Assembly (NCBI GenBank): GCA_902766115.1
Contig: CACXCL010000257.1
Coordinates: forward strand, 1-28,400
Reading direction: 5' to 3'
Source of the DNA: an uncultured Ruminococcus sp.
Lineage (GTDB): Bacteria; Bacillota; Clostridia; Oscillospirales; CAG-272
DNA length: 28,400 nucleotides
Of the stretch, positions 271 through 24,316 are shown piece after piece. The position numbers were made by a program, and so were the translations under genes. The stretch's first letter is position 1. The number at the start of each line of letters is the position of its first letter. The notes under the pieces are model-generated. The model was given only the letters and a program-made list of their open reading frames with translations, ran no database searches and had not been told where the DNA came from.

Positions 271-318
271 TAATTCAAGACATCAAATCAATATCACCTT
301 TTGAAGGAGGTTCTCTTC

Positions 319-2694
319 ATGGCGAACGGAAAAGGCGACAGACCTGCCGGTCGGCGACGCATCGGCGGAGGCACCGGCAAAAGCGTAAATACCCACGGCC
401 AGGGGCTCGGAACGGGTCCGGTAGGCAAACAGGACGCATACGCGGGACGGCGGGTGGACGGAAGCGGCGGCGGAAACGCCGGCGGCGGCGGGATCTCCGG
501 AAACGGCGGAGGCGCACAGCGCTCCGGAGGCAGAAAGAGCCTTCTGCCGACGATCATAATGATTGCCGTCATTGCTCTTCTGGCATGGTTCGTACTACCC
601 AAACTGTTCGGCAACAACGGCGCGGGCAACGGGATATCATCCCTGCTCGGCAGCTTCCAGGGCAACAGTTCCTACAGCGACGGAACCTGGACCGGAAAGG
701 ACAACACAGGCAAACTGAACACTTCTTCCACCTCAAACAAGCGCACCGTACTCCGCGGAGACGGCAGTGACAAAGTCACGGTGATGGTGTATATGTGCGG
801 CACCGATCTTGAATCCAAGAGCGGAATGGCATCGGCGGACCTCGCTGAAATGGCGGACGCCGATCTCGGGAAGAACGTGAATCTGCTGGTGTACACCGGC
901 GGATGCCGTCAGTGGAAAACCAGGGGCATCTCGAACTCCGCGCACCAGATCTACGCTCTGGAGAACGGAGGCCTGCGGCTTCTCAAAGACGACGCGGGCG
1001 GAAAGAAGGCCATGACCGATCCCTCCGCGCTCTCGGGATTTATCCGCTGGTGCAGGGATAACTATCCGGCGAACAGAAATATCCTGATCATGTGGGACCA
1101 CGGCTCCGGCTCGGTGGCGGGCTTCGGCTATGACGAAACGCGCAAAACCGGCTCCATGACGCTCTCTTCCATCGCCAAGGCGCTGAAGGACGGAGGCGTG
1201 ACCTTTGATTTCGTGGGCTTTGACGCCTGTCTGATGGCGTCGGTGGAGACCGCGCTCACGCTTGCGCCGTACTCGGACTACCTGATCGCCAGCGAAGAAA
1301 CCGAGCCGGGTATCGGCTGGGACCACACCCGGTGGCTGACGGAGCTGGGGAAAAATCCGGCGATCGACACAACGTCCCTCGGAAAGATCATCGCCGACGA
1401 TTTCGTCGCGACATGCGCGCAGAAGTGCCGGGGTCAAAAGACCACTCTCTCCGTGACGGATCTCGGGGAACTCTCCGCGAACGTGCCGGATGAGCTGAAA
1501 TCTTTTGCAAAGAGCACCGCGGACGCCATCAACGGTAAAGGTTACGCGGAAGTCTCCAAGGCGAGAGGCGACACCCGCGAATTCGGCGCGGAATGCAAGC
1601 TCGATCAGCTTGACCTCGTGCATCTCTCCCTGCTTCTTGATACCAAAGAGAGCCGCGCGCTTGCGGACGCGATCCTCGGCGCGGTGAAATACAACAAAGT
1701 CGGCGGAGGCGTCACCGACGCATACGGGCTGTCGGCGTACTTTCCGTACCGTTCCGCGAACAAGGTGAATACCGCCGTGAATGAGCTTGACGCCATGGGA
1801 TTTGACGACGACTACACAGCCTGCGTCAGAAAGTTCGCCTCGCTGGAGGTTGCAGGCCAGGCGGCGGGAGGCGGCAACGCCTCGCCTTTCGGTTCCCTCT
1901 TCGGCGGTTCGGGATCGGCGCCCTCAGTCAACGTGGCGGAACTGGTCGGCTCGCTTCTGGGAGGCAGCGGCAACTCTCTGCTGAGCTCGCTCATCGGCGA
2001 TTCCTCGGCTTTTGACAGCTCCATCCCGACCGGCACGCTGATCGACGCGGTGGAGAACTCCCGTCTCAAGGAGTCCCTCGCCTGGACCGAAAAAGACGGG
2101 CAGAACGTCCTCTCAATGTCAGAATCCGAGTGGAAAAACGTGGCGGATCTGCAGCTCAACGTCTTTCTGGACGACGGCAAGGGCTATATCGACCTGGGGC
2201 TCGATTCGATCTTCAGTTTCACGGAAGACGGCGACCTGATCGGCGAATACGATAACATGTGGATCGCGATCAACAAGCAGCCCGTCGCGTACTACTTCAT
2301 TGACAGCACGGAAGAAGACGGCGTCACCGTGATCCGCGGCCGCGTGCCGGTACTGCTGAACGGCGACCGGGCGGAACTTCTTATCACTTTCCGCGGCGAC
2401 CTTCCGGAGGTCTCCGGAGTGCGGTTCGTCTACAAGAACGGAGAAACCGATACGATAGCCAAAACGGCGGAACTGACAGACGGAGACAAGATCCAGCCCA
2501 TCTGCGACCGCTACGGCTATGACGGGGCTTACGAGGATACATATATGTTGGGCGATCCCTTCGTCTACAGCGGAGAAAGCAGTCTCAAAGTGTCCGACGT
2601 CACCCTGAATTCCGGCGACGGCAAACCCGTCGCGGCGTATATGTTCACGGACCGCTTCGCATACGAGCACTGGACCGAGAAGATACCGGACTGA
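319..2694 (+). CDS. Clostripain-family (peptidase C11) cysteine protease, N-terminally membrane-anchored
   Basis: Motifs VYMCGTDLES, WDHGSG (catalytic His, 1099-1101), GFDACLM (catalytic Cys, 1228-1230), YLIASEETEPG. Gly-rich N-terminus followed by one hydrophobic helix. Start moved from TTG 301 to ATG 319 because AAGGAGG lies at 304-310. Confidence 0.9.
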   Translation: MANGKGDRPAGRRRIGGGTGKSVNTHGQGLGTGPVGKQDAYAGRRVDGSGGGNAGGGGISGNGGGAQRSGGRKSLLPTIIMIAVIALLAWFVLPKLFGNNGAGNGISSLLGSFQGNSSYSDGTWTGKDNTGKLNTSSTSNKRTVLRGDGSDKVTVMVYMCGTDLESKSGMASADLAEMADADLGKNVNLLVYTGGCRQWKTRGISNSAHQIYALENGGLRLLKDDAGGKKAMTDPSALSGFIRWCRDNYPANRNILIMWDHGSGSVAGFGYDETRKTGSMTLSSIAKALKDGGVTFDFVGFDACLMASVETALTLAPYSDYLIASEETEPGIGWDHTRWLTELGKNPAIDTTSLGKIIADDFVATCAQKCRGQKTTLSVTDLGELSANVPDELKSFAKSTADAINGKGYAEVSKARGDTREFGAECKLDQLDLVHLSLLLDTKESRALADAILGAVKYNKVGGGVTDAYGLSAYFPYRSANKVNTAVNELDAMGFDDDYTACVRKFASLEVAGQAAGGGNASPFGSLFGGSGSAPSVNVAELVGSLLGGSGNSLLSSLIGDSSAFDSSIPTGTLIDAVENSRLKESLAWTEKDGQNVLSMSESEWKNVADLQLNVFLDDGKGYIDLGLDSIFSFTEDGDLIGEYDNMWIAINKQPVAYYFIDSTEEDGVTVIRGRVPVLLNGDRAELLITFRGDLPEVSGVRFVYKNGETDTIAKTAELTDGDKIQPICDRYGYDGAYEDTYMLGDPFVYSGESSLKVSDVTLNSGDGKPVAAYMFTDRFAYEHWTEKIPD

Positions 2695-8900: not shown

Positions 8901-11867
8901 GACAAGTCCGGATGACGAGTACGTCAGCTCGGGATCATTTTCTCCGTAAACCTTAGTCTTAGCGTCCGCAGTGATGGTCAATGCCTTGGGAGTGATTTTC
9001 CCTTTTCCGATGATGGTATCAGAGCCAAGCTGATAGTTTCCGGCCTTGGAGCCTGTAAGAGAGATACCTGAGAAAGTGACATCATTATCACCGACGTTAG
9101 CATTATCGAAAACAGCCTCGAATTCTGTTGTAATGCTGTCATTGTTTACTACTCCGTTAACCGTGAGTCCTGCGCCAGGAGCAGAGGTGTTTCCGTCGTA
9201 AACCTTTACGACCTCGTTCGCCACAAGGTCAACGACTTTCTTATCTACCGTCAGCGTTCCGGGAGCATACGTGATCTCGTAGTTGCCGCTGCTCAGTCCG
9301 GACGGGATGATCGAATACGTTCCGACGTTGCCGAATTGTGTGTAGCTATATGCGTATTGCAGAGTACCGGTAAGAACAGCCTCGGTCTCTCCGTTTACAA
9401 ATCCAGCGTAAGCCACTCCGTCGTTGGCCGGTGCATCCCCGTAAATGATAGTCTTATCCTTTGCGGTGATCGTGAGCGGGGCCTTGGTGATCTCTATCTC
9501 GGCGCTGCCGGTGAAGGTGGTGTAACCCGATTTCTCCACCTTGTAGTACACCGTATATGTGTCAGCATCCTTGTACGTTGGTTTGGTAGAACTGTACGGG
9601 CCATTCTCAGACGTAGAATATGTAACGGTGGCATCGGCAGGATCGGACACCACGGTAATGCTGTGAGATTGACCGTCGTACGTCCCAGAGAATCCACTTG
9701 CCGTAACTTCTATGGTATTTCCGGCTTCTCCGCCCCAGACACCGTTGACATAGGGGATCTCGGTACCGGCGGATTTGTCTGCTGTTTCGACGTACGAGCC
9801 GTCGCCGTTCTGGAGTTTTGCCGCGGTGATGGGGATAGAAACGTAGGTGGGATTAGAACCTGACACCGTGGCCTGATAGGTATTGGTGTCCGTACCGGGA
9901 GCCGCAGTCTGGATGACCTTACCGGTGCCGGCGGAGCTGACGATGGCGGCGCCGCTCTCGGTTGTATAGAGCTGACCGGCAACGGTCAGCGTGCCGTTGA
10001 CGTCAATTTTCGCGTCAACGAGATTGGTCGCCGTGCGCTTTGCCGTCGCGCCATTGACAGTGGAGTAGCCGACCACACAGAGTTGCGCCCCTGAAATAGC
10101 ATAAGCGCCCCACTGGTCTTTATCATAGACGTACGCCTTTTGACCTGACGCCACAGTGACGTTCGCGCCATCAGCAATCGTCATTTCAGCGCCGGGCAGG
10201 AACGCCACGTCCTGACTGATCGTAGTCGTGCCGGAGTTGACGTTGATCGTGATGTTGCTCTGGATGGGCAGAACGTAGTCCGCGGTATTCAAATCAAGAG
10301 TCCCGACCAAAGGCACACCTGTTATCCTTAACCGCATGGAATTGATTGAAAAATTTCCATCCACATTAAGTTCCAAACGGTCGCTCGCACCGGTGAACCT
10401 CTTGGTCACAGAACCGCTCGATATCTGAAACATGCCACCTGCGCCAACAAAAGTGGCACTGGCACCGAACTGCTGACTTGACGCGTTAACAGCAGCGAAT
10501 ACCTTCTCAGTAGCTCCGGAATATAGCTTCAACGGCGCTTCGATGTTCTGGACGTAATACTGATTCAGCGGGAAGACCTTCTCAGAATTACCCGCCATCG
10601 TGGAGATACACGTCCCGCCGCGCCAGCAGCGGACCTGAAAGCACTCCCAGACCTCAGCACCAGATCGGGCGTATACGTTACCGGAGCCCGCGACGTAACC
10701 CCATGCATAGAGTTTACCGCCGGACTGGACGTCGATGGAGCTACCGTCGTTCATCGTGATGCGGCCGTGCGGTCCGGTAGGCGTCGCGTTCCAGGATCCG
10801 CTGTTCGTGCCGACCGCAGAAAGCTGGGAACACACGCACAACGAGCCGCCGCTTGCAACAATTAGGTTTGCACCACTTGCCATGGTCAGCGTGCGGAAGG
10901 CGGAGGGGGTAACGTGCGCCGCCGGGGTACCATCGTCTTTGGTGGTCATGCCGGGCGTAGTGGTATAGACGGTCTGCGCCTCGTCAAACGGGATCAGGAG
11001 CGTTTTGTCGCTGGGGATCGTGTAGCTGCCGGCTGGAAGTGTACCATTGGAAATCAGGACTATTTTTGCAGTACCGCTCGACTGAGCGTAAGAAATCGCT
11101 TCGTTTAAATCGGTATAGAGCATGGAACCGACCTGCCAGACAGGTAAAGAGGTCTGAACAAACTCCGGTTGGACCGTGCAAGCCTCAGTGAAACTGGTTG
11201 TCAAGGAAGCTTTGGGTTCAAAATACACACCTGTCGTCATAATTTTCCAGCCAAAGAACTTGTAACCATTCGCGGCCGTGGCGGCGAGGGTAACGGAGTC
11301 CGTGGTCTTGAAGGTCTTGACCGTATCGGCCGTGATTGCCGTGCCGTCGACGGTATAGGAGCCGTTCGTCGGCGCCTTGAAGGTGATATCGACGTTCGCC
11401 TCCGCCGTCAACTTGAGGTTCGAGATTACCATTCCGGTCTCGCCTTCACCTTTGGGAGAGGTGATTGAGACAGCGACCGTTTCGCCAGTGTTCAACGTCT
11501 TGCTGAAAGACGTGCCGGCCGTAACGGACGTGCCGTCAACCGTTGCGCTACCACCGGAGAGCGTCAGAGTATAGTTAAAACTCAGCACCGCCGTAGAAAC
11601 GGAGTTATTTGTGAACGTCAATGTGCCGGTTTGTGCGGAGTAGCTAGTGCCGCCGCAGCCGCTCGAAGCGCTCGCTTTTACGCTTCCGGTGATCGTGCCA
11701 CCGCTCGGTGTCCACGTTGCTTTGCCGTTGCTTTCTGCCGTCAATCCGGTTACACCCGTATTAATAGCATCCGCCCAGGCAGGAATAGACAGAGACGGCA
11801 TAATGGCCGCAAGCATAAGTATAGTTATAAGAATAGACAAGCTGCGCTTAACCACGTTTTTAATCAT
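2910..11867 (-). CDS. Giant secreted adhesin-like protein (2985 aa): signal peptide, about 700-aa uncharacterised head, stalk of MBG and YDG repeats, one InlB B-repeat-like module, C-terminal Ig-like domain; no wall anchor
   Basis: Signal peptide ending PAWA; RBS GAGAGGA; repeated KTYGExDPxLTY...GENVG (MBG) and KVYDG...GNY (YDG) modules; WKVDG...PTK...FAGW...YTAKF module near the C-terminus; no LPXTG, TM helix or SLH at the end. Confidence 0.9.
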   Translation of the reverse strand: MIKNVVKRSLSILITILMLAAIMPSLSIPAWADAINTGVTGLTAESNGKATWTPSGGTITGSVKASASSGCGGTSYSAQTGTLTFTNNSVSTAVLSFNYTLTLSGGSATVDGTSVTAGTSFSKTLNTGETVAVSITSPKGEGETGMVISNLKLTAEANVDITFKAPTNGSYTVDGTAITADTVKTFKTTDSVTLAATAANGYKFFGWKIMTTGVYFEPKASLTTSFTEACTVQPEFVQTSLPVWQVGSMLYTDLNEAISYAQSSGTAKIVLISNGTLPAGSYTIPSDKTLLIPFDEAQTVYTTTPGMTTKDDGTPAAHVTPSAFRTLTMASGANLIVASGGSLCVCSQLSAVGTNSGSWNATPTGPHGRITMNDGSSIDVQSGGKLYAWGYVAGSGNVYARSGAEVWECFQVRCWRGGTCISTMAGNSEKVFPLNQYYVQNIEAPLKLYSGATEKVFAAVNASSQQFGASATFVGAGGMFQISSGSVTKRFTGASDRLELNVDGNFSINSMRLRITGVPLVGTLDLNTADYVLPIQSNITINVNSGTTTISQDVAFLPGAEMTIADGANVTVASGQKAYVYDKDQWGAYAISGAQLCVVGYSTVNGATAKRTATNLVDAKIDVNGTLTVAGQLYTTESGAAIVSSAGTGKVIQTAAPGTDTNTYQATVSGSNPTYVSIPITAAKLQNGDGSYVETADKSAGTEIPYVNGVWGGEAGNTIEVTASGFSGTYDGQSHSITVVSDPADATVTYSTSENGPYSSTKPTYKDADTYTVYYKVEKSGYTTFTGSAEIEITKAPLTITAKDKTIIYGDAPANDGVAYAGFVNGETEAVLTGTLQYAYSYTQFGNVGTYSIIPSGLSSGNYEITYAPGTLTVDKKVVDLVANEVVKVYDGNTSAPGAGLTVNGVVNNDSITTEFEAVFDNANVGDNDVTFSGISLTGSKAGNYQLGSDTIIGKGKITPKALTITADAKTKVYGENDPELTYSSSGLVGNDTITGELTRAEGENVGEYDIKVGSLTAGDNYTISFTGAKLTITAKEVRISGLGAANKIYDGNTDATVTGEGSLEGLIKGDTVTIKAGTASFADKNAGDGKTVSFSGYALEGEDAGNYTLIQPADVTANITPKSVNVSGLGVEDKVYDGTKDATPAGLASATIDGKIGNDEVSVGSCTAAFLDKNVGDRKEVAFSNVVLTGTDAGNYTVDQVYDGEGKITKRPVTITGLEAADKYYDGGLAATVTGDAVIDNMIDGDDVTVADGSANFETADVDADKKVNFDGYSLTGNDAGNYELTAQPASVTASIFAVDVQWTAPEAIEGLAYTGEKQALITAGSAVGGEMQYKLGADGTYSPDIPKATEVGDYVVYYKVVADSNHNGVAEASITVSIGKADPTVTAPEALDRNYDGTEKPLVKAGSAVGGTMQYSLDGENWSETVPSATDAGVYGVQYRVIGDNNHKDYGPVTLNVNIKKIDPTVVKSAKAKTGLIYNGQDQELITAGEASGGTMMYSSDGERYSTDIPVGRNAQVGFGDVGSKYVIYCKIVGDNNHEEIQLDNIEVIIAPKELHVHADNKTKAYGENDPELTYTYDGLVEGDGPFVFGKLTREPGDAVGEYRIIQSEAFYVSDNYSTIFHEGTFTITRAPATVTKAPTAKSDLVYNGSDRALVEEGVADGGTMKYSLDGTNWRDTVPTGTNAGKYTVYYKVVGDGNHSDSAVDSVEVTIAQKTLNVEVTAHDKTYDGGDTADGTVILKGIVSGDSVSATADSIKFNDKNVGTGKEVTFSGITLTDASGNYTLGDVTSATTRANITAKDVTITGLRAADKVYDGTTAATVTGTAVIDGKIGDDDVTVVPGTASFEDANVGEGKTVTFTDFSLTGDDAGNYNLTAQPASVTANITAATMDVSAKGYSGTYDGAEHSIKVTAPEGATVKYSATENGDYTATNPAYKNAGTYTVYYKVEWANHTTETGSATVAINKATLTVTAEAKSKTYGEADPALTYTVEGLVTGDSLTGALTRVAGENVGEYDITVGTLSAGDNYTVSFTGAKLTITKATLTVIAEAKSKTYGEADPALTYQVSGLVNGDTKSVVTGELTRVAGENVGTYAINQGTLSAGDNYNIAFTGADFKITAKTLKITANAQTKVFGTTDPALTYTVEGLVTGDSLEGVLTRAEGENVGEYDITIGTLTAGDNYTISYTGAKLTITKATLTVTAEAKSKTYGETDPELTYTSSGLVGNDAITGELTRVAGENVGTYAIEQGTLSAGDNYNIVFSGANLTISAKALTIKADPKTKVFGTEDPALTYTVEGLVGSDALTGSLTRESGENVGTYAIKQGTLAASANYDVSFTGAEFTITDATMEITSSGYNGTYDGLPHGITVAAPAGATVTYSTAENGTYSTDNPTYTDVDTYTVFYKVEKENYTTVTGSETVVITKARLTVTAKDKTITYGDEPANDGVAYAGFVNGETEAVLTGTLQYTYGYAQFGNVGTYSIIPSGLSSGNYDITFNAGTLTVEQKTVGLTWSETSLTYNGNAQAPVATATGLVNGDVCTVTVEGQKTDVGTYTAEAKALSNGNYKLPAETTVQFTIVNASMSGVTSSDYVGTYDGQPHGITVNAPEGATVTYSASAGGSYVDSLTYVNAGEYTVYFKVVKANYETVTGSQKVTINKREVTLTWSDTSFTYDESAKCPTVAVGNLVDGDTCTAIVSGAAANAGPHTATVTGLSNDNYVLPSDNLTQEYTIAKAAKAAPEGVAAVAETYLNQKNGSITGVNGEMDYSVDGTNYVAVTGETIENLPAGTYYVRYKETENYNASPAVEITVAEGPAIKVTWKVDGQEDLVQDYAYGDTPSYGSTPTKAAEAGRSYVFAGWDPEIGTVTGDVTYTAKFTEKTCLTIKRTGAAEQDFVYSILNSSNAVVLRVVLPAGKTEVNVVGLPAGSYTVVEEHKWSWKITSIVNPEGGAVTLAESGTAEVTFTTSGSPITAWLNAFASIVKVITATNG
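4399..4611 (-). repeat. Intragenic direct repeat, copy A (MBG domain)
   Basis: About 213 bp matching 9280-9492 with about 19 mismatches by manual count; offset 4881 bp (1627 codons). Confidence 0.9.
4830..5966 (-). repeat. Five tandem MBG-type domain repeats (about 225 bp, 75 aa each) inside the adhesin
   Basis: Units LTxTAxAKxKx[YF]GxxDPxLTY...LTRxxGENVGxY...GxNYxxx[FY]TGA. DNA at 5094-5180 is nearly identical to 5544-5630 (450-bp offset). Confidence 0.9.
6210..9240 (-). repeat. YDG-type repeats (about six) interspersed with MBG-type and other Ig-like repeats
   Basis: Recurrent [KN]K[VIYT]YDGxxxA...F.D.NVG..K.V.F....L.G.DAGNY.L modules in the translation. Confidence 0.8.
9280..9492 (-). 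repeat. Intragenic direct repeat, copy B (MBG domain)
   Basis: Matches 4399-4611; both encode ANDGVAYAGFVNGETEAVLTGTLQY...QFGNVGTYSIIPSGLSSGNY. Confidence 0.9.
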
Positions 11868-11888: not shown

Positions 11889-12566
11889 TTATGCTTGCGC
11901 GCCGCGCTTTTTTTCGCGACGTCGTCTGATTTCAATGTAAAAGCATAGCCCCACGATGACGGAAATCGCCGCCCAGATGTGGGATCTATGTAAAATGCTG
12001 TTCGTCTCGGCGGTGCGGAAGCACTCCAGCACGGCGCGGACGACGCCGTAGGTGAACATATACAGGGGGTAAACTTCGCCGCGGGTCTTCCCTTTCCAGA
12101 CGCGCGGTACGATGATCGCAAGGAAGATCGCGTAAAATACCAGCTCCGCTTCCCGTGTGGGGAAACGCCACGGTGCGTGGCCGGGGATTATCACGCCCGT
12201 GCAGCACCCGGCGAAAATGCAGTTGACGCGGGCACAGGCGACAGCGAATATCATACAAGGGGTGAAAATATCGAAGACCTCCGTCGTTTTGCGCTTTGAA
12301 ATTTTAGCACCGAGCCACAAAGCAATCGGCATCAAGAAAACAACGCCGAACAAGCTCATTGCACCGCCAGTGAGAGGCTTTCCCTCCAGCACGGCGAACG
12401 CCTTGACAGAAAAGACACCATAAACGACTGATGCAACGCTCAGTATGAGCGCGGCGTACCACTTCATCCGGAGGCGGCGGCGCAGTAGAAACAGCCACAG
12501 AAACGTGACCGCGCCGGCAAGTCCCAGGAGAAGGTACAGCCGATTCGATTCGATAAAATTCGACAC
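11889..12566 (-). CDS. Divergent prolipoprotein diacylglyceryl transferase (Lgt)-family membrane protein
   Basis: Multi-pass; GGAMSLFG, DIFTP...ARVNCIFAGCCTG, FPTREAE and YGVVRAVLECFR map onto Lgt signature motifs with substitutions. GTG start with AAGGGA RBS. Confidence 0.75.
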   Translation of the reverse strand: MSNFIESNRLYLLLGLAGAVTFLWLFLLRRRLRMKWYAALILSVASVVYGVFSVKAFAVLEGKPLTGGAMSLFGVVFLMPIALWLGAKISKRKTTEVFDIFTPCMIFAVACARVNCIFAGCCTGVIIPGHAPWRFPTREAELVFYAIFLAIIVPRVWKGKTRGEVYPLYMFTYGVVRAVLECFRTAETNSILHRSHIWAAISVIVGLCFYIEIRRRREKKRGAQA

Positions 12567-12594
12567 AATATATTTCCCTTTTATAAGCCAAAAT

Positions 12595-12645
12595 ACAGCA
12601 CCGGCGGTCTCCGTCCTCTTTTCGGGGAGGAGACCGTCATGCTGT
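12595..12645 (-). terminator. Possible attenuating hairpin between the subunit genes and the Lgt-like/adhesin genes
   Basis: ACAGCA..GGCGGTCTCC / GGAGACCGTC..TGCTGT inverted repeat, followed on the minus strand by ATTTT. Confidence 0.45.
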
Positions 12646-12657
12646 TCGTTTGTGCGG

Positions 12658-13668
12658 TTACGGCGTCGTCCAGTTGGACGTCGCAGGATCGTACGTCGCC
12701 TCGGTCCATTTCTCCGCGGCGGCGTCGCCGGCTGCCTGGATCGCCTCGACCGTCACGGTGACGGTCACGCCTTCGGCTGCTTCGGCGGCGTTTGCATCGC
12801 TGAAGACGGGCTTTGTCGTGGTCCTGTTCGGGGCGACCGTGCCGTTATAGTAGAGGTAGTCGCCGACCTTCGTCCATCCCGCGGGGGTGGAAAGGGCGGT
12901 CACGCCTTCCTTGAGGAGCGGGCTGTCGCTCGCAACGATATTGCCCGCCTCGTCAACGTAATTCAGCACCACGGTCGCGCGGATCAGGGCGTCGATATTG
13001 CCGGTGTTGGTGACGGTGTAGTCGCCGTTGACGACAGCGCTCACCTCAACCGCCTTGAACGTTTCCGTGACGGCAGCGGAGCTTACTTTCTTCAATTCCG
13101 GATCAGTATCCGCGAAAACAGCGGACGGTGTGGAGTCACTGTTTCCGATCTCGATCAGGTGCGCGGTGACGGAAACAGAATAATCCGTCGTCAAAGGCTC
13201 CTCGGCAAGTTCGAGGGTGCCAAAGACAGGCGCCGTGACGTCAATCGTCAAAGGAGCATTCTGATAGCAGTACACCTTGACTCCGGCGGGACCGGCGACG
13301 CCGGTGAGTTCCTTCCAGTCTGCGCTCAGAGCAAGACCGGCGGGAAGATCGCCTGTGACTTCAATAAAGAGATACGCGGGGATCGCTTTTCTTCCCTCAA
13401 CCTTTACAACGGTGGTGGGGGCGACAGACGTGCCGGGGATAAGATTGAGCGTTTCCGCGCTCGTCTGGCCGGCGGCGTCCGTGTCGTATGCCAAAAGCTT
13501 ATCTGCAAGAGACGTGTCGACCATGTAGGACACGCTGCCGCTGAGGCTGACCTGGGTCGTGTACTTGGCGCTCGATCCGGAGACGGGGAACAGAATGCCA
13601 ACTACGAGGACCACAAGAAGCAGAGCGGCTGCAGCGACGCGGCTTTTCGATACTTTGATCTTTCTCAT
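12658..13668 (-). CDS. SipW-signal fibre subunit with two tandem TasA/BsaA-like domains (336 aa)
   Basis: Basic N-terminus, hydrophobic core, then SGSSA-KYTT; LIPGT motif; second domain VTNTGNIDALIRA...GWTKVGDYLYYNGTVAP...VTVEAIQA. Confidence 0.7.
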   Translation of the reverse strand: MRKIKVSKSRVAAAALLLVVLVVGILFPVSGSSAKYTTQVSLSGSVSYMVDTSLADKLLAYDTDAAGQTSAETLNLIPGTSVAPTTVVKVEGRKAIPAYLFIEVTGDLPAGLALSADWKELTGVAGPAGVKVYCYQNAPLTIDVTAPVFGTLELAEEPLTTDYSVSVTAHLIEIGNSDSTPSAVFADTDPELKKVSSAAVTETFKAVEVSAVVNGDYTVTNTGNIDALIRATVVLNYVDEAGNIVASDSPLLKEGVTALSTPAGWTKVGDYLYYNGTVAPNRTTTKPVFSDANAAEAAEGVTVTVTVEAIQAAGDAAAEKWTEATYDPATSNWTTP

Positions 13669-13681
13669 TTTTCCGCCCTCC

Positions 13682-14128
13682 TCAGTCTATCTGCGTGAAG
13701 GTCACGACGACGGTAAAGGGTACCGTGCCCGCGCCTGTCACTGATTCCGACATCTTGAGCGTGAGAGTTTTTGTTTCGTTTGCGCCTCCCGGGGCGAGTG
13801 TGCCGGTGGGCAGTGTGATCTCGCCGAATTTCGCGGCGTCGTCGGCCGAGGCGAACTTCACCTCCGCCTTATACCGCACGGCGGTCTCCCCGGGGTTCGT
13901 CACGGTGAGGGTGTACGTGCCTTCCTTTGAGGCGCCGATGGTGACGGGACCAGTCTGGGCCGACGTGGCAGACACTTTGAACGACGCGATACGTCCCGAG
14001 TCGTCTCCTCTCGATTTAGTGGTATAGCGCGCGTACATTCCCGTGGTGAAGTGCGCGGTCACCAGGACCATGCACAACAGAACGAGCGCCACGCTGAGCG
14101 TCGTGGGCATACTCTTCTTTCTCATCAT
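13682..14128 (-). CDS. Small SipW-signal fibre subunit (148 aa)
   Basis: Signal ending TTGMYA-RYTTK; YTLTVTNPGETAVRY motif; ends VTFTQID like the major subunit; RBS AGAGGAG. Confidence 0.75.
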   Translation of the reverse strand: MMRKKSMPTTLSVALVLLCMVLVTAHFTTGMYARYTTKSRGDDSGRIASFKVSATSAQTGPVTIGASKEGTYTLTVTNPGETAVRYKAEVKFASADDAAKFGEITLPTGTLAPGGANETKTLTLKMSESVTGAGTVPFTVVVTFTQID

Positions 14129-14196
14129 ATCTCACGTCTCCTCTTGTTTTTGCGTTATCCGGGATCGCGCGCCCGGCGGGTGATCGGCATTTGCCG

Positions 14197-14883
14197 TTAT
14201 TCTTCGTCTTCCGTTTTTTCTTCTTCCGGTGCGCCCGGTTTTTCTTCTGTTTCTGCGGCTTGTTCTTCCGGTTTTTCTTCGGTTTTTCCTTCTTCCAGCG
14301 CCTTCAGGCGGCGGATCTCGGCTTTGATCTCGTCAAGCTCGCTGTCGTCCTCTTTCCGCTCCCTTTTCCAGGATAGGTTGATCAGGAGGATCAGCCCCGC
14401 GATCACCAGGATGATGCCGATCGGCGATTGCAGAAAACGCACCGCGGCTCCCACGACGGGGATCTTGCCTACCATCCTGCCCTTTACGTCCTCCGCGGGG
14501 ATGGGCTCGTCTTCGGTATTGTTGGCGTCGCCCCGGGTGACGATCTTGCCGTCCTCCAGGATCCGCGTCACCCGATGGATGACACGGGACGCGCCGGACT
14601 GGTAGACCACCACGTCGCCCTCACGGACGTCCTCGCCGTTCACTGCCCTGACGAAGACAAGGTCGTTCACCGACAGGGTTGGCTCCATGCTGCCGGACAG
14701 CACCACGGAGGCGCCCCAGCCGAAGGGCATGGGCATGGCGTTGCGCACAAGGCGCCGGGCGTTGACGGAATAGGCGGTGCCGCCGATGAATACGGCGAGC
14801 ACTACGATGATCAGGATCCGGAAAAACAGGCGGCCGCCGTTTTTCTTCTTCTTTTCCTTATTATTATCCTTTTGCCGGCTCAT
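14197..14883 (-). CDS. sipW: Signal peptidase I, SipW/ER-type (S26B), copy 2
   Basis: VVLSGSMEP (Ser), VIHRV (His), TRGDANNTED; N- and C-terminal TM helices. Confidence 0.9.
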   Translation of the reverse strand: MSRQKDNNKEKKKKNGGRLFFRILIIVVLAVFIGGTAYSVNARRLVRNAMPMPFGWGASVVLSGSMEPTLSVNDLVFVRAVNGEDVREGDVVVYQSGASRVIHRVTRILEDGKIVTRGDANNTEDEPIPAEDVKGRMVGKIPVVGAAVRFLQSPIGIILVIAGLILLINLSWKRERKEDDSELDEIKAEIRRLKALEEGKTEEKPEEQAAETEEKPGAPEEEKTEDEE

Positions 14884-15838
14884 CTTTTTCTTTGTCGTCG
14901 CGCTTTATGGCGTAAATCAGCACGCCGATGGCGCAGAGGGAAACCACCGCGACGGCTCCCCAGAGATAGGTATTGGTGTTGTCGCCGGTCTGCGGGGGCT
15001 TCACGCCGCCGCCTTCCTCGCTCCACTCCGCAACGGCGCGGATGACGATGTGGAGGGTCAGGTCTTTGTCAACGGCAAGGTTGCCGAGCATGGTGTCGTA
15101 CGCGTCGTTGGAGTCGAGGCCTTCGCCGTCGAAACGCTCGAAGGGCCAGCGCCAGTCGAGGGTGTAGTCGCGGATGTTGCCGGCGGAGAGGTAGTCGGTC
15201 TCCTCGTAGCCGTCCAGATCAAGCACGTCGGGCCACTCGGTATCGGAGCCGATGACGTAGCCTTTTTCTGCGGTCTTGAGGCGGCCCTCGATGGGGATCC
15301 ACAGGCCGTCGGTGTTCTCGTAGTACGCATCAACCGTGAGCTTATACTTCAGGTTGTGGCTGCCGGTGTTCTTCAGGGTGAAGTTATACGCCTGCTCCGT
15401 GCCGGGGGCGAAGACGTTGTCGCCCTTTTCGGAGTTGACCGAGAAGACGGGATATCCCGCCTCGCTGTCGTAATGGACGCTGAATATGTCGATATCGGTC
15501 TCGGTGGTCCAGATCTGGTCCTTGTCCTCGACTCTGAAGCCGGTGACGTTGCCCTCAGGGTCGTCGATGATCGTGTCGGAGTCGGTCTTTGAGCCGGGAT
15601 CGGAAGCGGGAGCCTTGCCGTCGGTCTTTTCGTCGCCGGCGGCGTTCAGCATGAGCTTCGTCTTGTCCCCGCTCTCGGTAAGGGAGATATAGTTGCGCTG
15701 TTCCACGGGGGAGAAGGCAGCGATCTTGCTGACGACCACCGATACCGAGCACAGCTCAAGCAGTATCAGCAGGATCAGCGCGACGATGATCCCGGAATTG
15801 ATTCGCCTTCCCCTGCGGCGGGTCTTTGATTCTCTCAT
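14864..15838 (-). CDS. Sortase-anchored protein (PPQTG) carrying a domain homologous to the major SipW subunit
   Basis: Start set at ATG 15838 (GGAGG upstream). N-terminal hydrophobic helix; FSVNSEKGDNVFAPGT, NFTLKNTGS, WRWPFE...DAYDTMLGNLA; ends PPQTGD, TM helix, KR tail. Confidence 0.8.
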   Translation of the reverse strand: MRESKTRRRGRRINSGIIVALILLILLELCSVSVVVSKIAAFSPVEQRNYISLTESGDKTKLMLNAAGDEKTDGKAPASDPGSKTDSDTIIDDPEGNVTGFRVEDKDQIWTTETDIDIFSVHYDSEAGYPVFSVNSEKGDNVFAPGTEQAYNFTLKNTGSHNLKYKLTVDAYYENTDGLWIPIEGRLKTAEKGYVIGSDTEWPDVLDLDGYEETDYLSAGNIRDYTLDWRWPFERFDGEGLDSNDAYDTMLGNLAVDKDLTLHIVIRAVAEWSEEGGGVKPPQTGDNTNTYLWGAVAVVSLCAIGVLIYAIKRDDKEKDEPAKG

Positions 15839-15952
15839 TTGAGCTCCTCCAATCTGTATACACACGCGGCATACGCCGTGAATAATTCCTGCTTTTGCGC
15901 TTACGACCGCCTGCGCGCGTGCGCGGGCGCTTGTAGGAACAAAAGCCGCGGT

Positions 15953-15987
15953 TCCGTCCCCGCCCCGCCACGAAGGGCGGGGACGGA
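15953..15987 (-). terminator. 13-bp GC stem-loop after the major subunit gene (partial terminator or mRNA stabiliser)
   Basis: TCCGTCCCCGCCC-cgccacgaa-GGGCGGGGACGGA; the U-run on the minus strand is displaced about 9 nt from the stem. Confidence 0.7.
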
Positions 15988-16042
15988 CCGGTTTAGCTTA
16001 TGTTTCAGTTACGACTGTGATTTAAGTTAAATCAGGCTTAAA

Positions 16043-17011
16043 TTAGTCGATCTGGGTCGCGGTAGCGGTAAGGGTAGCCGCGATGGTGGTGTTGGCGTTG
16101 TCATCAGTGATAACACCAGCAGCAACGTTGCCGAGGTAGGTGTCAGCCGCATCGACGATGGGATCTGCCGCATTGTCCACTATCTTCTCAAACGCCCAAG
16201 CCCAAGAAAGTTCGAACGTGAAGTCCATCTCTTTGTTGGGATCAAAGTCGTAGGAGAGTTTGAACGTGCCAGTGGCAGGATCAGCATCGAGCTGGAAGTT
16301 ACGACCACCGGAAACAATATTTCCAAGAACGGTCTCAACGATCTGCGTGTAAGTATCATCGTCAGCAACCTTTTTAAGGATAGCGATCGCATCAAAGAAG
16401 GAGCAACCATCTTTAGAGAAGCCGTAGCTCTCAGCAGCCGCAAGAAGTGTGGGGTACTGTCCAAGAGCTCTATAAAGATCGGTCGCAACATCGTAGGAAG
16501 CGCTTCCCTTGGAAATCTTGAGGTTCCACTTAACAGGAGCATAGTCCTTGTCAAGATTGAATGTGCCGGTGTAACCGTAAGTACCGTCAGCAGCCTTTAC
16601 GAGCTGAGTGTAATCGGTGTAGGTGCCCTTCTTCAGAACGACATCTTTAACAGCCTTGCCCTCAAGGGTGTAACGAGTAGCAACCTCGGGGGTACCCTTA
16701 ACGGTAGCAACCATGCCGAGACCGTCATCTGCGTCAGGAGTACCGGGAGCTACAACGGCTTCGCCTTCAACAGACGAAACGACGGAGTACTCTCCATCAT
16801 CTTCTGTATAAGCTTCATCAGTTGCGAGATACTTGTCAGCAAAGTTCTTGCCTTCAACAGTCAGCACCACGCCCCACTTTGCAACGCGGGCCTGATCTTC
16901 GCCTTCAGCCTTGGTCACGTACTTTGCGAACGTGCCGGAGATGGCGCATACGGAGATGAGAGTAAGAGCAAGCAGAAGCGAGAATACTCTCATAACATTG
17001 TTCTTCTTCAT
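16043..17011 (-). CDS. Probable major fibre subunit with SipW-cognate signal peptide (TasA/camelysin-like, 322 aa)
   Basis: MKK, hydrophobic core, SGTFA-KYVTK (compare TasA GTWA-AF); VVAPGT; WAWAFE...DAADTYLGN; ends ATQID; strong RBS GAAAGGAG; lower G+C with T-ending codons. Confidence 0.8.
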   Translation of the reverse strand: MKKNNVMRVFSLLLALTLISVCAISGTFAKYVTKAEGEDQARVAKWGVVLTVEGKNFADKYLATDEAYTEDDGEYSVVSSVEGEAVVAPGTPDADDGLGMVATVKGTPEVATRYTLEGKAVKDVVLKKGTYTDYTQLVKAADGTYGYTGTFNLDKDYAPVKWNLKISKGSASYDVATDLYRALGQYPTLLAAAESYGFSKDGCSFFDAIAILKKVADDDTYTQIVETVLGNIVSGGRNFQLDADPATGTFKLSYDFDPNKEMDFTFELSWAWAFEKIVDNAADPIVDAADTYLGNVAAGVITDDNANTTIAATLTATATQID

Positions 17012-17241
17012 TTGAGAAAAACTCCTTTCATAATTTGCCTTTCGGCTTTAGATTCTTCCCTCCTCGGCCGGCGAGACGATAATGGGTCCTACGCTTCGTG
17101 GCGTGTTCCGTTCCGTCCGAACCACTTCCGGGGGAGAATTGATTTATATTCACCCCCGACGTGGCTTACGGGGGAAGAATACCTTAACTTGAGTGCGGCA
17201 CATGCCGCGGCCACTATGTTTGCGGGACCGCTCCCGCGGGG

Positions 17242-17961
17242 TCAGTTTTCGGGATCCTCGCCGTCTCCGGCGGTATCCACGGGGGTCTCGTCCTTTTCGG
17301 GAGCGGCCGGTTCCACCTCTTCCGACGGTTTTCCCTTTTCGGAGGCGGCTTGCTTTGCTTTGAGAGCCGCCAGCTCCTCAAGGAGCGCCTCGGTGTCCTT
17401 GTTTTTCGATTTCTCGTACTTCCTGCGGCGGATCAGCTCGAACGCCACCAGCAGCGCCAGCGGGATCGCGATGCACACGATGAGACCGGGGGTGGACTGC
17501 AGGAACATGGCGACGCTGCCCGCGCCCTTGATCTTTCCTTTATATATACCCACCAGGTTGTCGAACGGTGCGGGTGTGGGGTCTTCGGTGTTGTTGGCGT
17601 CACCTTTGGTCCGCCATGCCGGTTTCCCGTCATCAGTCTCGGTGATCTCCACCACCCGGTGGGTCAGCACTGAGGTCCCCGACCCGTCCGGATCGAAGAA
17701 CGCGATGACGTCGCCTTCCTTCACGTCCTCCGCCTTAAGAGCTTTGACGAAGATGAGGTCGCCGCTCTTGATGTCGGGGTACATGGAGTCCGTCAGGACG
17801 ATCAGCGGGGAGTAGCCTCCCACGGACGGGACCTTGCTCGGGTTCACCAGCCCCTTGATGATGATCGTCACGTTGACGACGAGTATAGGCACAAGGAGCA
17901 GGCACAGGACAATGCCGATGATCATCCCTGCCTTTCCCTGTTTCTTTTCCTTTTTTGTCAT
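17242..17961 (-). CDS. sipW: Signal peptidase I, SipW/ER-type (S26B), copy 1
   Basis: IVLTDSMYP (Ser), LTHRV (His), TKGDANNTED; two TM helices; first gene of the operon. Confidence 0.9.
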   Translation of the reverse strand: MTKKEKKQGKAGMIIGIVLCLLLVPILVVNVTIIIKGLVNPSKVPSVGGYSPLIVLTDSMYPDIKSGDLIFVKALKAEDVKEGDVIAFFDPDGSGTSVLTHRVVEITETDDGKPAWRTKGDANNTEDPTPAPFDNLVGIYKGKIKGAGSVAMFLQSTPGLIVCIAIPLALLVAFELIRRRKYEKSKNKDTEALLEELAALKAKQAASEKGKPSEEVEPAAPEKDETPVDTAGDGEDPEN

Positions 17962-18414: not shown

Positions 18415-18999
18415 GTGAAAACGGAGAATATCGGCGTGAATGAGCAAAACGGAACGGCTGAGCGGGCAAAACCCGAAAAAAAGAACGGAAAACGGTATTT
18501 TGCCGCGCTGAGGAGTACGGCGGGCCGGCTCATCGTGGCCGCCGCCGCGGCGGTTCTGATCGCCACGACTCTGACGCCGGTGATGCGGATCTACGGGACG
18601 TCCATGACTCCCACAATAAGCGAGGGCGACGTGGTCCTGGCTCTGAAGGGGGTCCGCGTCCGTCAAGGAGACGTCGTAGGGCTCTACTACGGGAACAAGC
18701 TTCTGGTGAAACGCGTTATCGCCGGTCCGGGGCAGGAAGTGGACATTGACCCGGACGGGAACGTGACGGTGGACGGACGTCTTCTCGACGAGCCGTACCT
18801 CGACGACCGGTCCTACGGCACGGTGGACATCACGCTCCCCTGCCGCGTGCCGGACGGGCGGTACTTCGTGATGGGAGACCACAGAAGCTCCTCCGCCGAC
18901 AGCAGAAGCTCGGACGTGGGGCTTGTATCCCGGGAACAGATCGTCGGGAAGATATTTTTCAGGGTCTGGCCCGCGTCCCGGATGGGACCGGTAAAGTGA
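18415..18999 (+). CDS. lepB: Pilus-associated signal peptidase I, LepB-type (S26A)
   Basis: IYGTSMTPT (Ser), LLVKRVIA (Lys), YFVMGDHRSSSADSR; one N-terminal TM helix. Start codon uncertain. Confidence 0.9.
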   Translation: MKTENIGVNEQNGTAERAKPEKKNGKRYFAALRSTAGRLIVAAAAAVLIATTLTPVMRIYGTSMTPTISEGDVVLALKGVRVRQGDVVGLYYGNKLLVKRVIAGPGQEVDIDPDGNVTVDGRLLDEPYLDDRSYGTVDITLPCRVPDGRYFVMGDHRSSSADSRSSDVGLVSREQIVGKIFFRVWPASRMGPVK

Positions 19000-19044
19000 T
19001 AAACAAAGCGATATATAAAGTGAAAGGTTCGGAGGGAGGCGCCC

Positions 19045-22000
19045 ATGAGGTATGCCATGGAGATGAACGGTAAGGGAAGAAAAAGCAGGACCCGTTTCGG
19101 GATAAAGCGACGCGCTCTGCAGGCACTGGCAGCACTTCTGTCGCTTGCGGCGGCGGTGGCTGCGGGATGCGCCGTGATGCTCCCGGCGTCCACTTTGGAC
19201 GAAAGAGGCGGCGCGCCGTACGACGGAGGCGTGACACGTTCTCCGGGGGTGATGAAATTCAAAATAAACGTCTTCGACAGGTATACCGGAGAGGCGGTGC
19301 CCGGCGTGCCGGTGGAAGTGATCTACAGGGGAACTTCCGGCACCACGCTGTTCACCGAAACGTCCGACGTGCGCGGCGTGGCGTACCGGGAGATGAACTA
19401 TTCCTCCGCCGGGAACAACTATCAGATAATGCTCGGAGGCGTGGCGGTGGACGGTGTGGGAAGTCACCGCTTCGACTTCGGACCTGCAGGCGGATCGGGC
19501 TTCAGTCTCGACATAAGCGCCGACGGACGGATCCGCCGCTTTGCGGGAGGCGAGCACACCCACGCCCGTGAGGGCGTTACAGGATCCGGAGCGAGATACG
19601 ACGACGCGCAGCTAAACAATCACGGTTCCGCGCGCCATCCCTGGATCGACGAGGGAGCCACGGTGGAGATGGATCTGTGGGTGGCGGACAACCGCGGCTA
19701 TCACGACGTGATATTCGATGTGGACGGTCTCAGCAACGGAGCGGATTTCCCGTCCGTCACGGCGGCTCACGGAGACGCCGCCGCCGAACCTCAGCCGGAG
19801 CCGCAAAGCGATCTCTATCCGGCGGACAGATGGCGGTTCGAGGCATGGTACAGGGGCGGGCAGCCCTATGATTTTTCTTCTCCGGTGGTCTGCAACGTGG
19901 GACTGACTCCCCATTTTGTCAGAACGGCGTACGGGGTGGAGTTCGACACGTCGCGGATCGCCGACCCGGACGGATACAGCCCGTTCACAGTGGCGGCGGG
20001 GCAGTCGGTCGGCGACGTCACATCCCTCCCCGATCCGGTGAACCGGGACGACCCGTCCCTTGTCTTCTCCCACTGGACAGCGGGAGGCGAAGTCTTCGAT
20101 CCGTCGGCGCCTCTGACGGACGACGTGACTCTCGTCCCCGTCTGGGAAGGGGACGGTCCCCGGGGGATCATCCACTTTGAAGTATATATGTGGGATCACG
20201 ACGCCTACTGGAGCGCGCCCAAAACGAAACTTCCCGCGCCGGTGACCGTCAACGGAGTGACGGGCAACTACCGGGCGGAGGATTATCTATCAAACGACGG
20301 ATGGACCTCCATTCCCGTCGAGGGGCTGGATTTCGTACTCAAGACCTACGCGGACGATCCTGCGCAGATCGGCGGAGGATACAGCGGCGGCATCGTGGAG
20401 GATTCGCTCAAATCTCCGGTGGGGACGACCGACTGGTCCGAGTCCCGGGTCACCACCGACGCGGCGGGTCGCGCAACCTACGAGATCGACGGAGAGGGGC
20501 TCTCTCTCCTCACCCCGGACTGGAGGATCGACACGGACCCGGACAGCTCCGACATGGCGCGGTACGACCGCGGTACCGGCTACGGCATGGAGGAGACCAC
20601 CTTCGACTGGGACTGGTACGTTAAGGGCGCCGACGGCGCCGGCGCGGGTCTCGTCGGGGTGCGGTACATCCGGGAGGGAGCGCGCCACGACAACTCGGGC
20701 GTGCTCATCAGCGGCAGGAACGACAACGACAACGCGTATATCACGCAGGACATGAGAGAAAACGGATTCGAGTTCACCTTCGTCTGCTACGTGGTCCCGG
20801 CTTGTACCGTGAAATTCGACCTCGACGGCGGCTCGCCGCCCGGGGGCGCCTCGTGGGACAGCTACGCCATGCAGACCATAAGCCCCGTGGATTCCACCGG
20901 AAGCCCCGTGGAGACTTTCTTCGCGGTGAGACCGCCGGATCCCGCAAAGGACGGATCGGTCTTTGCCGGGTGGTACGAGGTGCGGTATCTGTACGACGGG
21001 AACACCGGGGAATACACGGAATACCTTGACTCGGAGCACTACGATTTCGACCGGGAGGTGACCCACTCGATGACGCTCCGGGCGGTCTACACCGACAGGC
21101 TCTACACGGCGCGGTGGGTGACCCCCGGCTGGGAAGCGGCGGGCTTCCCCGATTCTCCGCCCTCGCTCATCGAGATGCGTAACAGCTATCCCGACGGGGA
21201 GAGACCGTCATACGACAGCGACCTTCCCGGGGGATACACGGACGGCGGGGTGAAATACGCCTTCTCCGGGTGGGACCTGTACGTCGCCGACTCCGCGGGG
21301 GAAAAGGATTTCGGCCCCGCGGGAAGATACGCCTTTTCGGCATTCGTGCCCCTCGGGGAGATGACCCGGATGACTGCCGGCGGGGGCGAATATTATCTGT
21401 CGCCTGCGCCGATCGACGGCGCGGACCAGGTGTACGTCGCCCGGTTCGAACCTGTCGAGAAGACCGTGACGGTGTCGAAATCCGTCACGAACGGCATGGG
21501 TTCGTTCCCGTTCGAGCTCAGCGTGACCGGTCCCGGCGGCGAGCCGGTATCGCTCGCGTCGGCGGGGGTCGTCCTCCCTGACGGTGTCACGCTGAAGGAA
21601 GGATCCGCGGAAACAGCGGTCTTTTCCCTCGGCGACGGGGAAAGCCTCGCCCTGTCCCTGCCGGTGTCGTTCAACGGGCAGCCCTGCCTCTTCACGGTGC
21701 GGGAGACCGACCCGCGAGACTTTGACGCGTCATACTCGGTGGACGGCGGCGGGGCGGTAAGAGGTGACGCGACGGACGCGCTCCCGGTGGGCGAGACGGA
21801 TACGGTGTCCTTCGTCAACGGGCGCGAAGTCGTTCCGGTCACAGTGACGAAAACCGTGGTGAACGGATCCGGGACGTTCCGGTTCACGGCGTCCGTGACA
21901 AAGAACGGCGAGCCGGTCGATCTGCGCGGCGTCTCCGGTCAGACAGCCGTGCTGTCCGGGGACTCGTACGACAAGCTTTCCTTCTCTCTCGGGAACGGAG

Positions 22001-22665: not shown

Positions 22666-22740
22666 CCGCGGCAATAACTCGCGCCCGGTCGTGACCGAAT
22701 AATAAAACAACAAATCAAAACAAAGAAAGGAAGCAACACA

Positions 22741-24249: not shown

Positions 24250-24266
24250 ACCGTTTCGGACGCTTG

Positions 24267-24291
24267 CGGGGAGGGGGCTTCCCCTCCCCGG
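24267..24291 (+). terminator. GC stem-loop without U-tract after the backbone pilin (approximate coordinates)
   Basis: GGGAGGGG-gctt-CCCCTCCC inverted repeat directly after the TAA; no poly-T follows. Confidence 0.6.
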
Positions 24292-24316
24292 ATAAAGCAC
24301 AAAGGAGAGCGCGGCA

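Follow-up and report, generated by a model that had tools for sequence, protein, structure and literature searches.

A minimal Lgt paralogue of gut and rumen Clostridia is paired with giant secreted proteins and may lipidate an internal cysteine

A stretch of 28,400 nucleotides from an uncultured Ruminococcus sp. (contig CACXCL010000257.1, positions 1 to 28,400; here 'the window') encodes LgtL, a short paralogue of the prolipoprotein diacylglyceryl transferase Lgt, followed directly by the gene for a giant secreted protein. That LgtL has a dedicated partner is strongly supported, and we consider it highly probable that LgtL is functionally coupled to a hairpin in that partner whose tip is a conserved cysteine, C71. 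LgtL may be a minimal Lgt-type enzyme dedicated to the neighbouring giant protein and lipidating its internal C71, a proposal whose chemistry we infer and whose chances we judge to be about even. We are slightly less confident of the broader reading, in which lipid is placed on the hairpin-tip cysteine of a folded extracellular domain, outside a lipobox or signal peptide; bacteria would then have a new way of lipidating proteins. The features that carry the argument are as follows.

11889-12566, minus strand: LgtL open reading frame, GTG start, 225 amino acids (aa), a minimal Lgt-fold paralogue with seven transmembrane (TM) helices
2910-11867, minus strand: giant partner, 2985 aa, secreted, with a Sec signal peptide, an N-terminal module, ten MBG_2 repeats and six YDG repeats
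11772-11867, minus strand: signal peptide of the partner, ending AWA/DA, a type I site without a lipobox
9732-11867, minus strand: N-terminal module of the partner, residues 1-712, whose homologues adjoin LgtL in other genomes
11637-11672, minus strand: beta-hairpin S66-ASSG-C71-GGTSYS77, the proposed acceptor site, with an invariant cysteine at its tip

LgtL is an Lgt paralogue beside the housekeeping enzyme

The genome of the window also encodes a canonical Lgt (contig C74; 229 bits, 358 aa; motifs GRWGNFVNVEVYG, HPLFLYE and YGFGRMLLE), so LgtL is, as a preliminary description of this DNA had proposed, a paralogue beside a housekeeping Lgt and not the sole Lgt. Its open reading frame is preceded by an AAGGGA ribosome-binding site. 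The product scores 58.1 bits against PF01790 (Pfam LGT; cut-off 24.9), or 56 bits in a whole-genome search, and matches profile positions 74-239 of 240 only, leaving the first 73 unmatched. It fails both NCBIfam Lgt equivalogs, TIGR00544 (28.2 against a cut-off of 118.9) and NF000778 (36.3 against 334).

The AlphaFold2 model of LgtL, built on a family alignment (pLDDT 96.4, pTM 0.91), has seven helices. Its sole significant match in the Protein Data Bank is E. coli Lgt, 5azb (Foldseek TMq 0.63, probability 1.00), to which VIA aligned 214 of the 225 residues (Z 14.0, root-mean-square deviation 4.1; runner-up Z 5.5). LgtL shares with E. coli Lgt (5azb/5azc) the seven-TM body and the same fold and topology signals: its basic segments (loops 28-35, 90-93 and 158-164 and the RRRREKKR tail) are placed inside, and the conserved polar residues therefore lie at the outer face, as in Lgt. 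Unlike the 291-aa E. coli enzyme, the 225-aa LgtL has a reduced head and lacks arm-1 and most of arm-2. The head domain, which in E. coli runs from E151 to P197 (PMC4728403), is cut to about 11 residues, and the spacer from G124 to P136 is 11 residues long against about 50 in E. coli Lgt.

A homologue search with LgtL returned 397 matches, nearly all of 210-260 aa, and an exhaustive search of representatives yielded 290 clusters at E<=1e-10, rising to 775 at E<=1e-3. The family amounts to hundreds of clusters at 50% identity, mainly from gut and rumen Clostridia, and LgtL is a member of a conserved family and not a decaying copy. A tree against housekeeping Lgt, as called for in the preliminary description, places canonical Clostridial Lgts in one clade (Shimodaira-Hasegawa approximate likelihood-ratio test (SH-aLRT) 99) and all cysteine-type paralogues in another (95). 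Within the latter, full-length proteins with MYPY...GRIGCxxxGCCxG branch first, followed by the short forms that include LgtL (98).

The gene downstream of LgtL is its conserved partner

Scanning one genome per species with LgtL as the seed gave 73 loci, almost all from gut and rumen Clostridia; the cultured hosts among them are Flintibacter porci, Fusibacillus kribbianus, Brotocaccenecus cirricatena and a Pseudoflavonifractor sp. The gene directly 3' of LgtL encodes a large secreted protein that aligns with the first ~710 residues of the window's adhesin; phmmer detects it in 63 loci and a profile in 65, which places the partner module right after LgtL in 65 of the 69 loci with enough downstream sequence. 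The two genes overlap by 4 nucleotides (nt) in 24 loci, and in about 20 others the gap is 0 to 25 nt. In the window, which belongs to a genome with one LgtL and one partner module, the partner gene begins 21 nt 3' of the LgtL stop; the adhesin is just downstream as first described, with a gap one nucleotide shorter than the 22 nt given then. Eight loci are without the partner: four end directly after LgtL, and in one other LgtL is an N-terminally replaced remnant. Two loci (L046 and L053) have two tandem cysteine-bearing partners behind one LgtL. The partner at L057 shares only its first ~160 residues with the window's adhesin, and the common element is therefore narrowed to the N-terminal domain.

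The association also appears from the other side. A scan of metagenome contigs seeded with the beta-helix motif of the module, and not with the enzyme, gave 80 loci, and LgtL stands immediately upstream in all 68 cases in which a cysteine-bearing module has at least 750 nt of upstream sequence. At L110 LgtL lies immediately downstream of the module, at L095 two divergent modules flank one LgtL, and L136 is cut off. Many of the 80 contigs are near-copies of one another and are therefore not independent. A separate arrangement occurs at L020:5948-10412, where a divergent LgtL-like gene (ISCCFAGCC) directly follows the gene for a 1192-aa secreted protein with SSGGCNSTT at about residue 263; the same locus also holds a normal LgtL beside a histidine kinase.

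The conserved partner of LgtL is the giant gene directly downstream and not the SipW/TasA-like module that precedes the pair in the window. The preliminary description had tied the function of LgtL to the downstream adhesin, which these loci bear out, and had suggested a linkage to sipW loci, which they do not: SipW homologues occur in 8 of the 73 loci and TasA-like proteins in 4-6.

One cysteine of the partner is invariant

The AlphaFold2 model of the partner's N-terminal module (pLDDT 92.8) comprises a beta-sandwich (residues 33-155), a Flg_new-like domain (156-238) and a right-handed beta-helix (~240-700). In this model C71 sits between strands 66-70 and 73-77, that is, at the tip of a hairpin. 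Among 61 aligned modules only two columns are invariant, C71 and G390. The adhesin head does contain several cysteines, as first noted (8 in the first 600 aa), but the other seven of the module are not conserved and the relevance attached to them is confined to C71. The surrounding stretch reads SASSGCGGTSYS, and across 126 non-identical sequences the consensus of the turn is [ST]-[GS]-[GS]-[GTAS]-C-[SGT]-[GDSN]-T-x-Y. It resembles a lipobox at positions -2, -1 and +2, lacks the hydrophobic residue at -3, and lies ~38 residues past an ordinary AxA cleavage site. No canonical signal-peptide lipobox occurs among the translated operon products, in agreement with the preliminary description; the closest approaches, ISVC and VLLC, carry V or L at -1.

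Searches of Pfam, NCBIfam and the Atlas with the N-terminal module found nothing beyond similarity to Flg_new-type repeats, and the beta-helix has weak Foldseek matches to Ag43, TibA and GH87 that are generic only. As Cys-Gln thioesters are frequent in adhesins, we considered a thioester domain (TED) for C71 and rejected it: the flanks are small and polar where the TED motif is aromatic and hydrophobic, the hairpin is an insertion of a beta-sandwich, and no TED family in Pfam or NCBIfam matches the module. The beta-helix (residues ~240-712; 9732-11150, minus strand) carries a near-invariant polar set of its own (E408, R416-G-G, Q436, Q440-N-x-E443 and D496), which occurs without the N-terminal domain in other giant proteins (G190, G062, G137 and G090); the beta-helix may thus be no passive stalk but an enzyme or a site of binding.

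LgtL and the cysteine hairpin occur together

In a sample of 301 genomes from the window's own order, about ten hold full modules and three a high-scoring LgtL; a second, small order contributed three more genomes (G700, G697 and G695). LgtL and the cysteine hairpin are both present in G271, G202, G037, G700, G697 and G695. LgtL lies directly upstream of a module with SSGGCSP in G271, and in G697 a cysteine-bearing module directly follows LgtL; the order in G700 is LgtL, module, module, ~2 kb and a second LgtL, with both modules cysteine-bearing. Seven modules from genomes without LgtL (G290, G240, G204, G002, G222, G238 and G146) have neither the hairpin nor its cysteine, and KGSL, TGYT or SGKGS stands at the site. 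When these seven genomes were searched for LgtL, five gave weak canonical-Lgt-like matches only and two (G222 and G238) gave none. Throughout the sampled genomes, a cysteine-bearing module is always accompanied by LgtL and the seven genomes with only cysteine-less modules are without it.

On a tree of 69 modules, LgtL and the cysteine are both present in 62 rows and both absent in 7, so that the traits agree in every row; the two change together three times, at least two of these on well-supported branches. A class-level genome sample, in which two candidates were scored per genome, yielded one partial module. Weak matches to the N-terminal module profile at L087-L093 reflected signal-peptide similarity only and were set aside. 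Some cysteine-less modules (L194 (G002:C6), L081, L082 and L085) have an extra ~120-aa segment rich in His and Glu between the signal peptide and the N-terminal domain, and one of these proteins has a dockerin-like end.

LgtL keeps the Lgt network and has a cysteine triad

Residue equivalences were taken from HMMER against 5azb and from MAFFT with E. coli Lgt from NC_000913 (L003:5163-6038, minus strand). Four segments of LgtL matter here.

12195-12230, minus strand: signature RVNCIFAGCCTG, R113-V-N-C116-I-F-A-G-C121-C122-T-G124, equivalent to Lgt R143 to G154 at the outer end of TM4
12144-12161, minus strand: P136-T-R-E-A-E141 in place of Lgt HPxQLYE, with the P197 and E202 equivalents retained and the family-specific R138 and E139 invariant
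12015-12050, minus strand: Y173-G-x-x-R177-x-x-x-E181-x-x-R184, equivalent to the essential hydrogen-bond network Y235/R239/E243/R246 of Lgt
11973-11990, minus strand: H193..H196-x-W198, conserved residues peculiar to the family, where TM7 begins and in the part that in Lgt holds the W256/Y259 gate

The residue changes given in the preliminary description hold in these alignments. From E. coli Lgt to LgtL, H103 becomes F73, N146 becomes C116, E151 becomes C121, L152 becomes C122 and H196 becomes F135. The Arg and Gly of the signature are kept (R143 as R113, G154 as G124), HPxQLYE becomes FPTREAE, and RxxxE is retained as R177 and E181. The motif itself was read correctly and its span was not: 12195-12233 is one codon too long. 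Also kept are P197 as P136, E202 as E141, Y235 as Y173, R239 as R177, E243 as E181 and R246 as R184, together with the equivalents of G98, M100, S101, G104 and D129. Of the housekeeping signature G142-R-L-G-N146-F-I-N-G-E151-L-W-G154, LgtL keeps only the R143, G150 and G154 equivalents; besides the two cysteines, G142 is replaced by A, G145 by N and N149 by A.

Each of R113, C116, C121, C122, E141, Y173, R177, E181 and R184 is kept in all 121 family members, an invariance which shows that the substitutions in LgtL are not chance. Further invariants in the 34-sequence alignment are C111, N115, T137-R138-E139, H193, H196 and W198. Among 140 diverse relatives, down to 26% identity, C116 is the sole invariant column, and conservation reaches at least 90% at R113, C121, C122, G124, P136, R138, E141, Y173, R177, R184, H196 and W198. 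Of the 121 members, 120 have F at position 103. LgtL Y11 falls one column off E. coli Y26, and the residue there varies among Y, L, W and I in the family.

The preliminary description took the altered positions to mean that diacylglyceryl transfer had been lost. That conclusion does not follow, since the changes at H103, N146 and E151 fall within natural Lgt variation. Many Lgts have a residue other than His at position 103, namely Y in Firmicutes, W in Actinobacteria and, in some species, F, and N146 to C and E151 to C or D are reported from natural Lgts, including that of L. interrogans, which gives partial complementation (PMC13251419). The housekeeping Lgt of the window's own genome has Y at position 103. 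R143, Y235, R239, E243 and R246 of E. coli Lgt are intolerant to mutation (PMC4728403), and all five are invariant in the LgtL family. What is truly unusual in LgtL is the absence of head and arms, the vicinal cysteine pair and the family-specific R138, E139, H193, H196 and W198. Of these, H193, H196 and W198 are candidates for a replacement base, and may lie in the cavity.

Proposed mechanism

In the mechanism that we propose, Sec would export the partner and a cut at the ordinary AxA site would remove its signal peptide, after which the N-terminal beta-sandwich would display a short hairpin with the sole conserved cysteine, C71, at its tip. Loss of the head domain and arms from LgtL presumably opens its cavity to the outside, which would let the hairpin of a folded, exported domain reach it. 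With the phosphatidylglycerol (PG)-binding and catalytic network that it retains (R113, E141, Y173, R177, E181, R184 and D99), LgtL would take a diacylglyceryl group, or a lipid much like it, from a phospholipid of the membrane and attach it to the C71 thiol. The N-terminal module would thereby be fixed to the membrane as the base of a fibre-like protein, with the variable C-terminal parts pointing outward. A separate enzyme would be needed because housekeeping Lgt acts on a cysteine that a signal peptide keeps at the membrane. A transferase role for LgtL, in our view the most economical mechanism, would thus account for the kept catalytic network, the lipobox-like turn and the need for a dedicated enzyme.

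The conserved head would then be the cell-proximal base and the variable repeats and C-terminal modules the distal, functional end; among partners in general these modules are often GYYYFDxDGKM-type repeats, SLH domains or a dockerin. No LPXTG motif, terminal TM helix or wall-binding repeats were found in the window's partner, which would have no evident means of attachment other than a lipid at C71.

Several observations weigh against lipidation of C71 by LgtL. Many partners, cysteine-bearing or cysteine-less, end in cell-wall-binding repeats, SLH domains or a dockerin, and a lipid anchor is therefore not obviously needed. For the same reason an expectation that we had entertained, that cysteine-less homologues would carry other anchors, does not discriminate, as cysteine-bearing proteins carry wall-binding ends too. 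Within the enzyme, N146, essential in E. coli Lgt, is a cysteine; there is no conserved Y26 equivalent; G142 and G145 are replaced; and LgtL lacks the arm-2/HGGL region, to which binding of the lipobox peptide is ascribed. The wider clade conserves the cysteine triad above R113, with H or K at the R143 position in some distant short relatives, a pattern that fits a thiol-centred function at least equally well. To our knowledge, S-diacylglyceryl on a cysteine inside a folded domain has no precedent. The covariation represents just two to three independent events, for which a sign test cannot reach significance. Finally, the sole LgtL of G695 follows a cysteine-less paralogue (THYPGTD) while the cysteine-bearing module lies on another contig, and adjacency is therefore not absolute.

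Alternative explanations

An unlikely but serious alternative is that C116, C121 and C122 at the outer face hold C71 by a mixed disulfide or in a Cys4 metal site, LgtL then being a membrane dock or redox partner and not a lipid transferase. The status of C116 as the sole invariant column in the diverse relatives, with C121 and C122 conserved almost as widely, favours this, as do the exactly one invariant cysteine of the partner, the retention of the triad in short distant relatives with H or K for R143, and the stabilising disulfide suggested for the cysteine pair of Leptospira Lgt (PMC13251419). Such a clasp leaves the strict conservation of R113, E141, Y173, R177, E181, R184 and D99 unexplained, and the LgtL-seeded loci hold no conserved metal or redox partner gene near LgtL. 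Extracytoplasmic disulfides are, moreover, uncommon in strict anaerobes, which argues against them in hosts that are gut and rumen Clostridia.

The pair could also be enzyme and substrate with another chemistry, for example an acyl thioester or some other phospholipid-derived group, in which a cysteine of LgtL might serve as a covalent intermediate. The triad does replace polar residues that touch the PG head group in E. coli, such as E151, which contacts it at the first PG site (PMC4728403), and R138, E139, H193, H196 and W198 are invariants peculiar to the family. Nothing points specifically to another donor, however, and the second-site residues that hold diacylglycerol are kept, so we regard a different transferred group as rather improbable.

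About as improbable, in our estimation, is that LgtL works without catalysis as a chaperone or platform, binding the hairpin or a lipid and orienting the module during export. Such a role would suit a protein that has lost head and arms as well as N146 and the H103 equivalent, and translational coupling suggests 1:1 assembly. Plain binding, however, needs neither an invariant cysteine in the partner nor an invariant Arg/Glu/Tyr network; two partner genes can follow one LgtL; and the separation of LgtL and cysteine-bearing module in G695 speaks against it as well.

That LgtL is an ordinary second Lgt for normal lipoproteins, its adjacency to the adhesin meaningless, is effectively excluded: the PF01790 match above cut-off and the ~1,300 genomes with two lgt genes (PMC13251419) are outweighed by an adjacency kept across many Clostridia, covariation with the cysteine hairpin, scores far under the equivalog cut-offs and a clade apart from canonical Lgt.

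Relation to known systems

Full-text searches of the literature found no description of an LgtL-like paralogue family, nor of an Lgt paralogue that lipidates an internal cysteine. The canonical Lgt acceptor is the lipobox that closes a signal peptide, whereas that of LgtL would be a hairpin cysteine in a folded domain. The closest parallels to the cysteine triad are L. interrogans Lgt and, by the same paper's description, M. smegmatis MSMEG_5408, which have Cys for N146 and a second cysteine nearby (PMC13251419). Leptospira Lgt, which was tried as a substitute for the housekeeping enzyme of E. coli, gives partial complementation there, and Cys at this position is thus compatible with Lgt activity (PMC13251419). 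Unlike LgtL, these variants are full-size and no dedicated neighbouring substrate is described for them (PMC13251419). The plasmid-borne lgt copies of the B. cereus group, found by conjugation lipoproteins, resemble LgtL in that a second Lgt travels with its presumed substrates; unlike the LgtL partner, those substrates are, as described, lipoproteins without sign of an internal cysteine site (PMC13251419).

Nearer to LgtL in the tree, the MYPY-type paralogues share its GCxxxGCC signature and clade and likewise occur beside a canonical Lgt. They differ in being longer (250-290 aa), in covering the whole Pfam model and in keeping PxQLxE and FYGG. Examples at L174, L175, L177, L180 and L181 (G168, G075, G291, G265 and G210) are often found beside small secreted proteins. 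Three short relatives of LgtL (L176 in G004, L178 in G132 and L086 in G245) are followed directly 3' by a gene for a ~580-600-aa BspA-like leucine-rich repeat (LRR) protein with a TM helix at its end and, after A/E cleavage, a mature N-terminus of the form E-[ES]-G-x-C-G-x-x-L-x-W; in two of the three enzymes the R143 position is occupied by H or K. We offer this only as a lead: it may represent another pair of enzyme and partner, or the cysteine may simply be part of the LRR cap.

In known pairs of sorting enzyme and signal, the enzyme is encoded beside surface proteins that carry a short recognition motif. LgtL and its partner resemble sortase/LPXTG, archaeosortase ArtA/PGF-CTERM and exosortase/PEP-CTERM in the co-distribution of a membrane enzyme with motif-bearing surface proteins. 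Those systems have unrelated folds, C-terminal tripartite signals and transpeptidation, whereas the motif paired with LgtL is an internal N-terminal hairpin.

Genomic context in the window

Two further features precede the pair on the same strand.

12658-17961, minus strand: SipW/TasA-like module 5' of the LgtL pair, context and not the conserved partner
12575-12660, minus strand: stem-loop followed by UAUUUUGG, between the gene for a 336-aa TasA-like protein and LgtL

Besides two SipW peptidases, the SipW/TasA-like module encodes three secreted proteins that share an A-[KR]-Y-[VT]-T site; a further product, of 333 aa, has PPQTG at its end, followed by a TM helix and a basic tail. It is joined to the pair only in the window's subclade (L004, L005, L006, L031 and L040). 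The stem-loop (-33.3 kcal/mol, z -4.3; none of 200 shuffles was equally stable) may act as a leaky terminator that sets an expression ratio; as it separates the module from the pair, the pair may differ from the module in expression level.

A divergent sortase-type pilus locus lies at 18415-26152 on the plus strand and encodes an S26 signal peptidase, a 1206-aa LPATG protein with DUF7601 and a 502-aa backbone pilin. It also has a 611-aa open reading frame that joins a sortase domain (100-225) to pilin D1/Cna_B domains (334-559); unless a stop or frameshift was missed, such a fusion would be unusual. The pilus and fibre loci are flanked by genes for a 797-aa clostripain-family (C11) peptidase (301-2694, plus strand) and a TraB/PrgY/GumN-family protein (26915-27973, plus strand).

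Implications

Lgt is usually seen as serving one purpose only, with the lipobox that ends a signal peptide as its recognition site, and the LgtL family, which is widespread, would show the Lgt scaffold reused for substrate-specific modification. A practical caution for annotation is that the label 'prolipoprotein diacylglyceryl transferase' on LgtL-type genes does not denote the housekeeping function. If the modification is a lipid, it would explain how anchorless giant adhesins such as the 2985-aa protein are retained by the cell, would define a class of lipoproteins invisible to lipobox predictors, and would provide a two-gene system, an enzyme and a ~200-aa domain with one cysteine, for the study of acceptor recognition by Lgt. 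If the proposal is true, LgtL would serve to anchor giant fibre-like surface proteins by their base in Clostridia of the gut and rumen, and the principle may extend to other cysteine-type Lgt paralogues with neighbouring substrates of their own.

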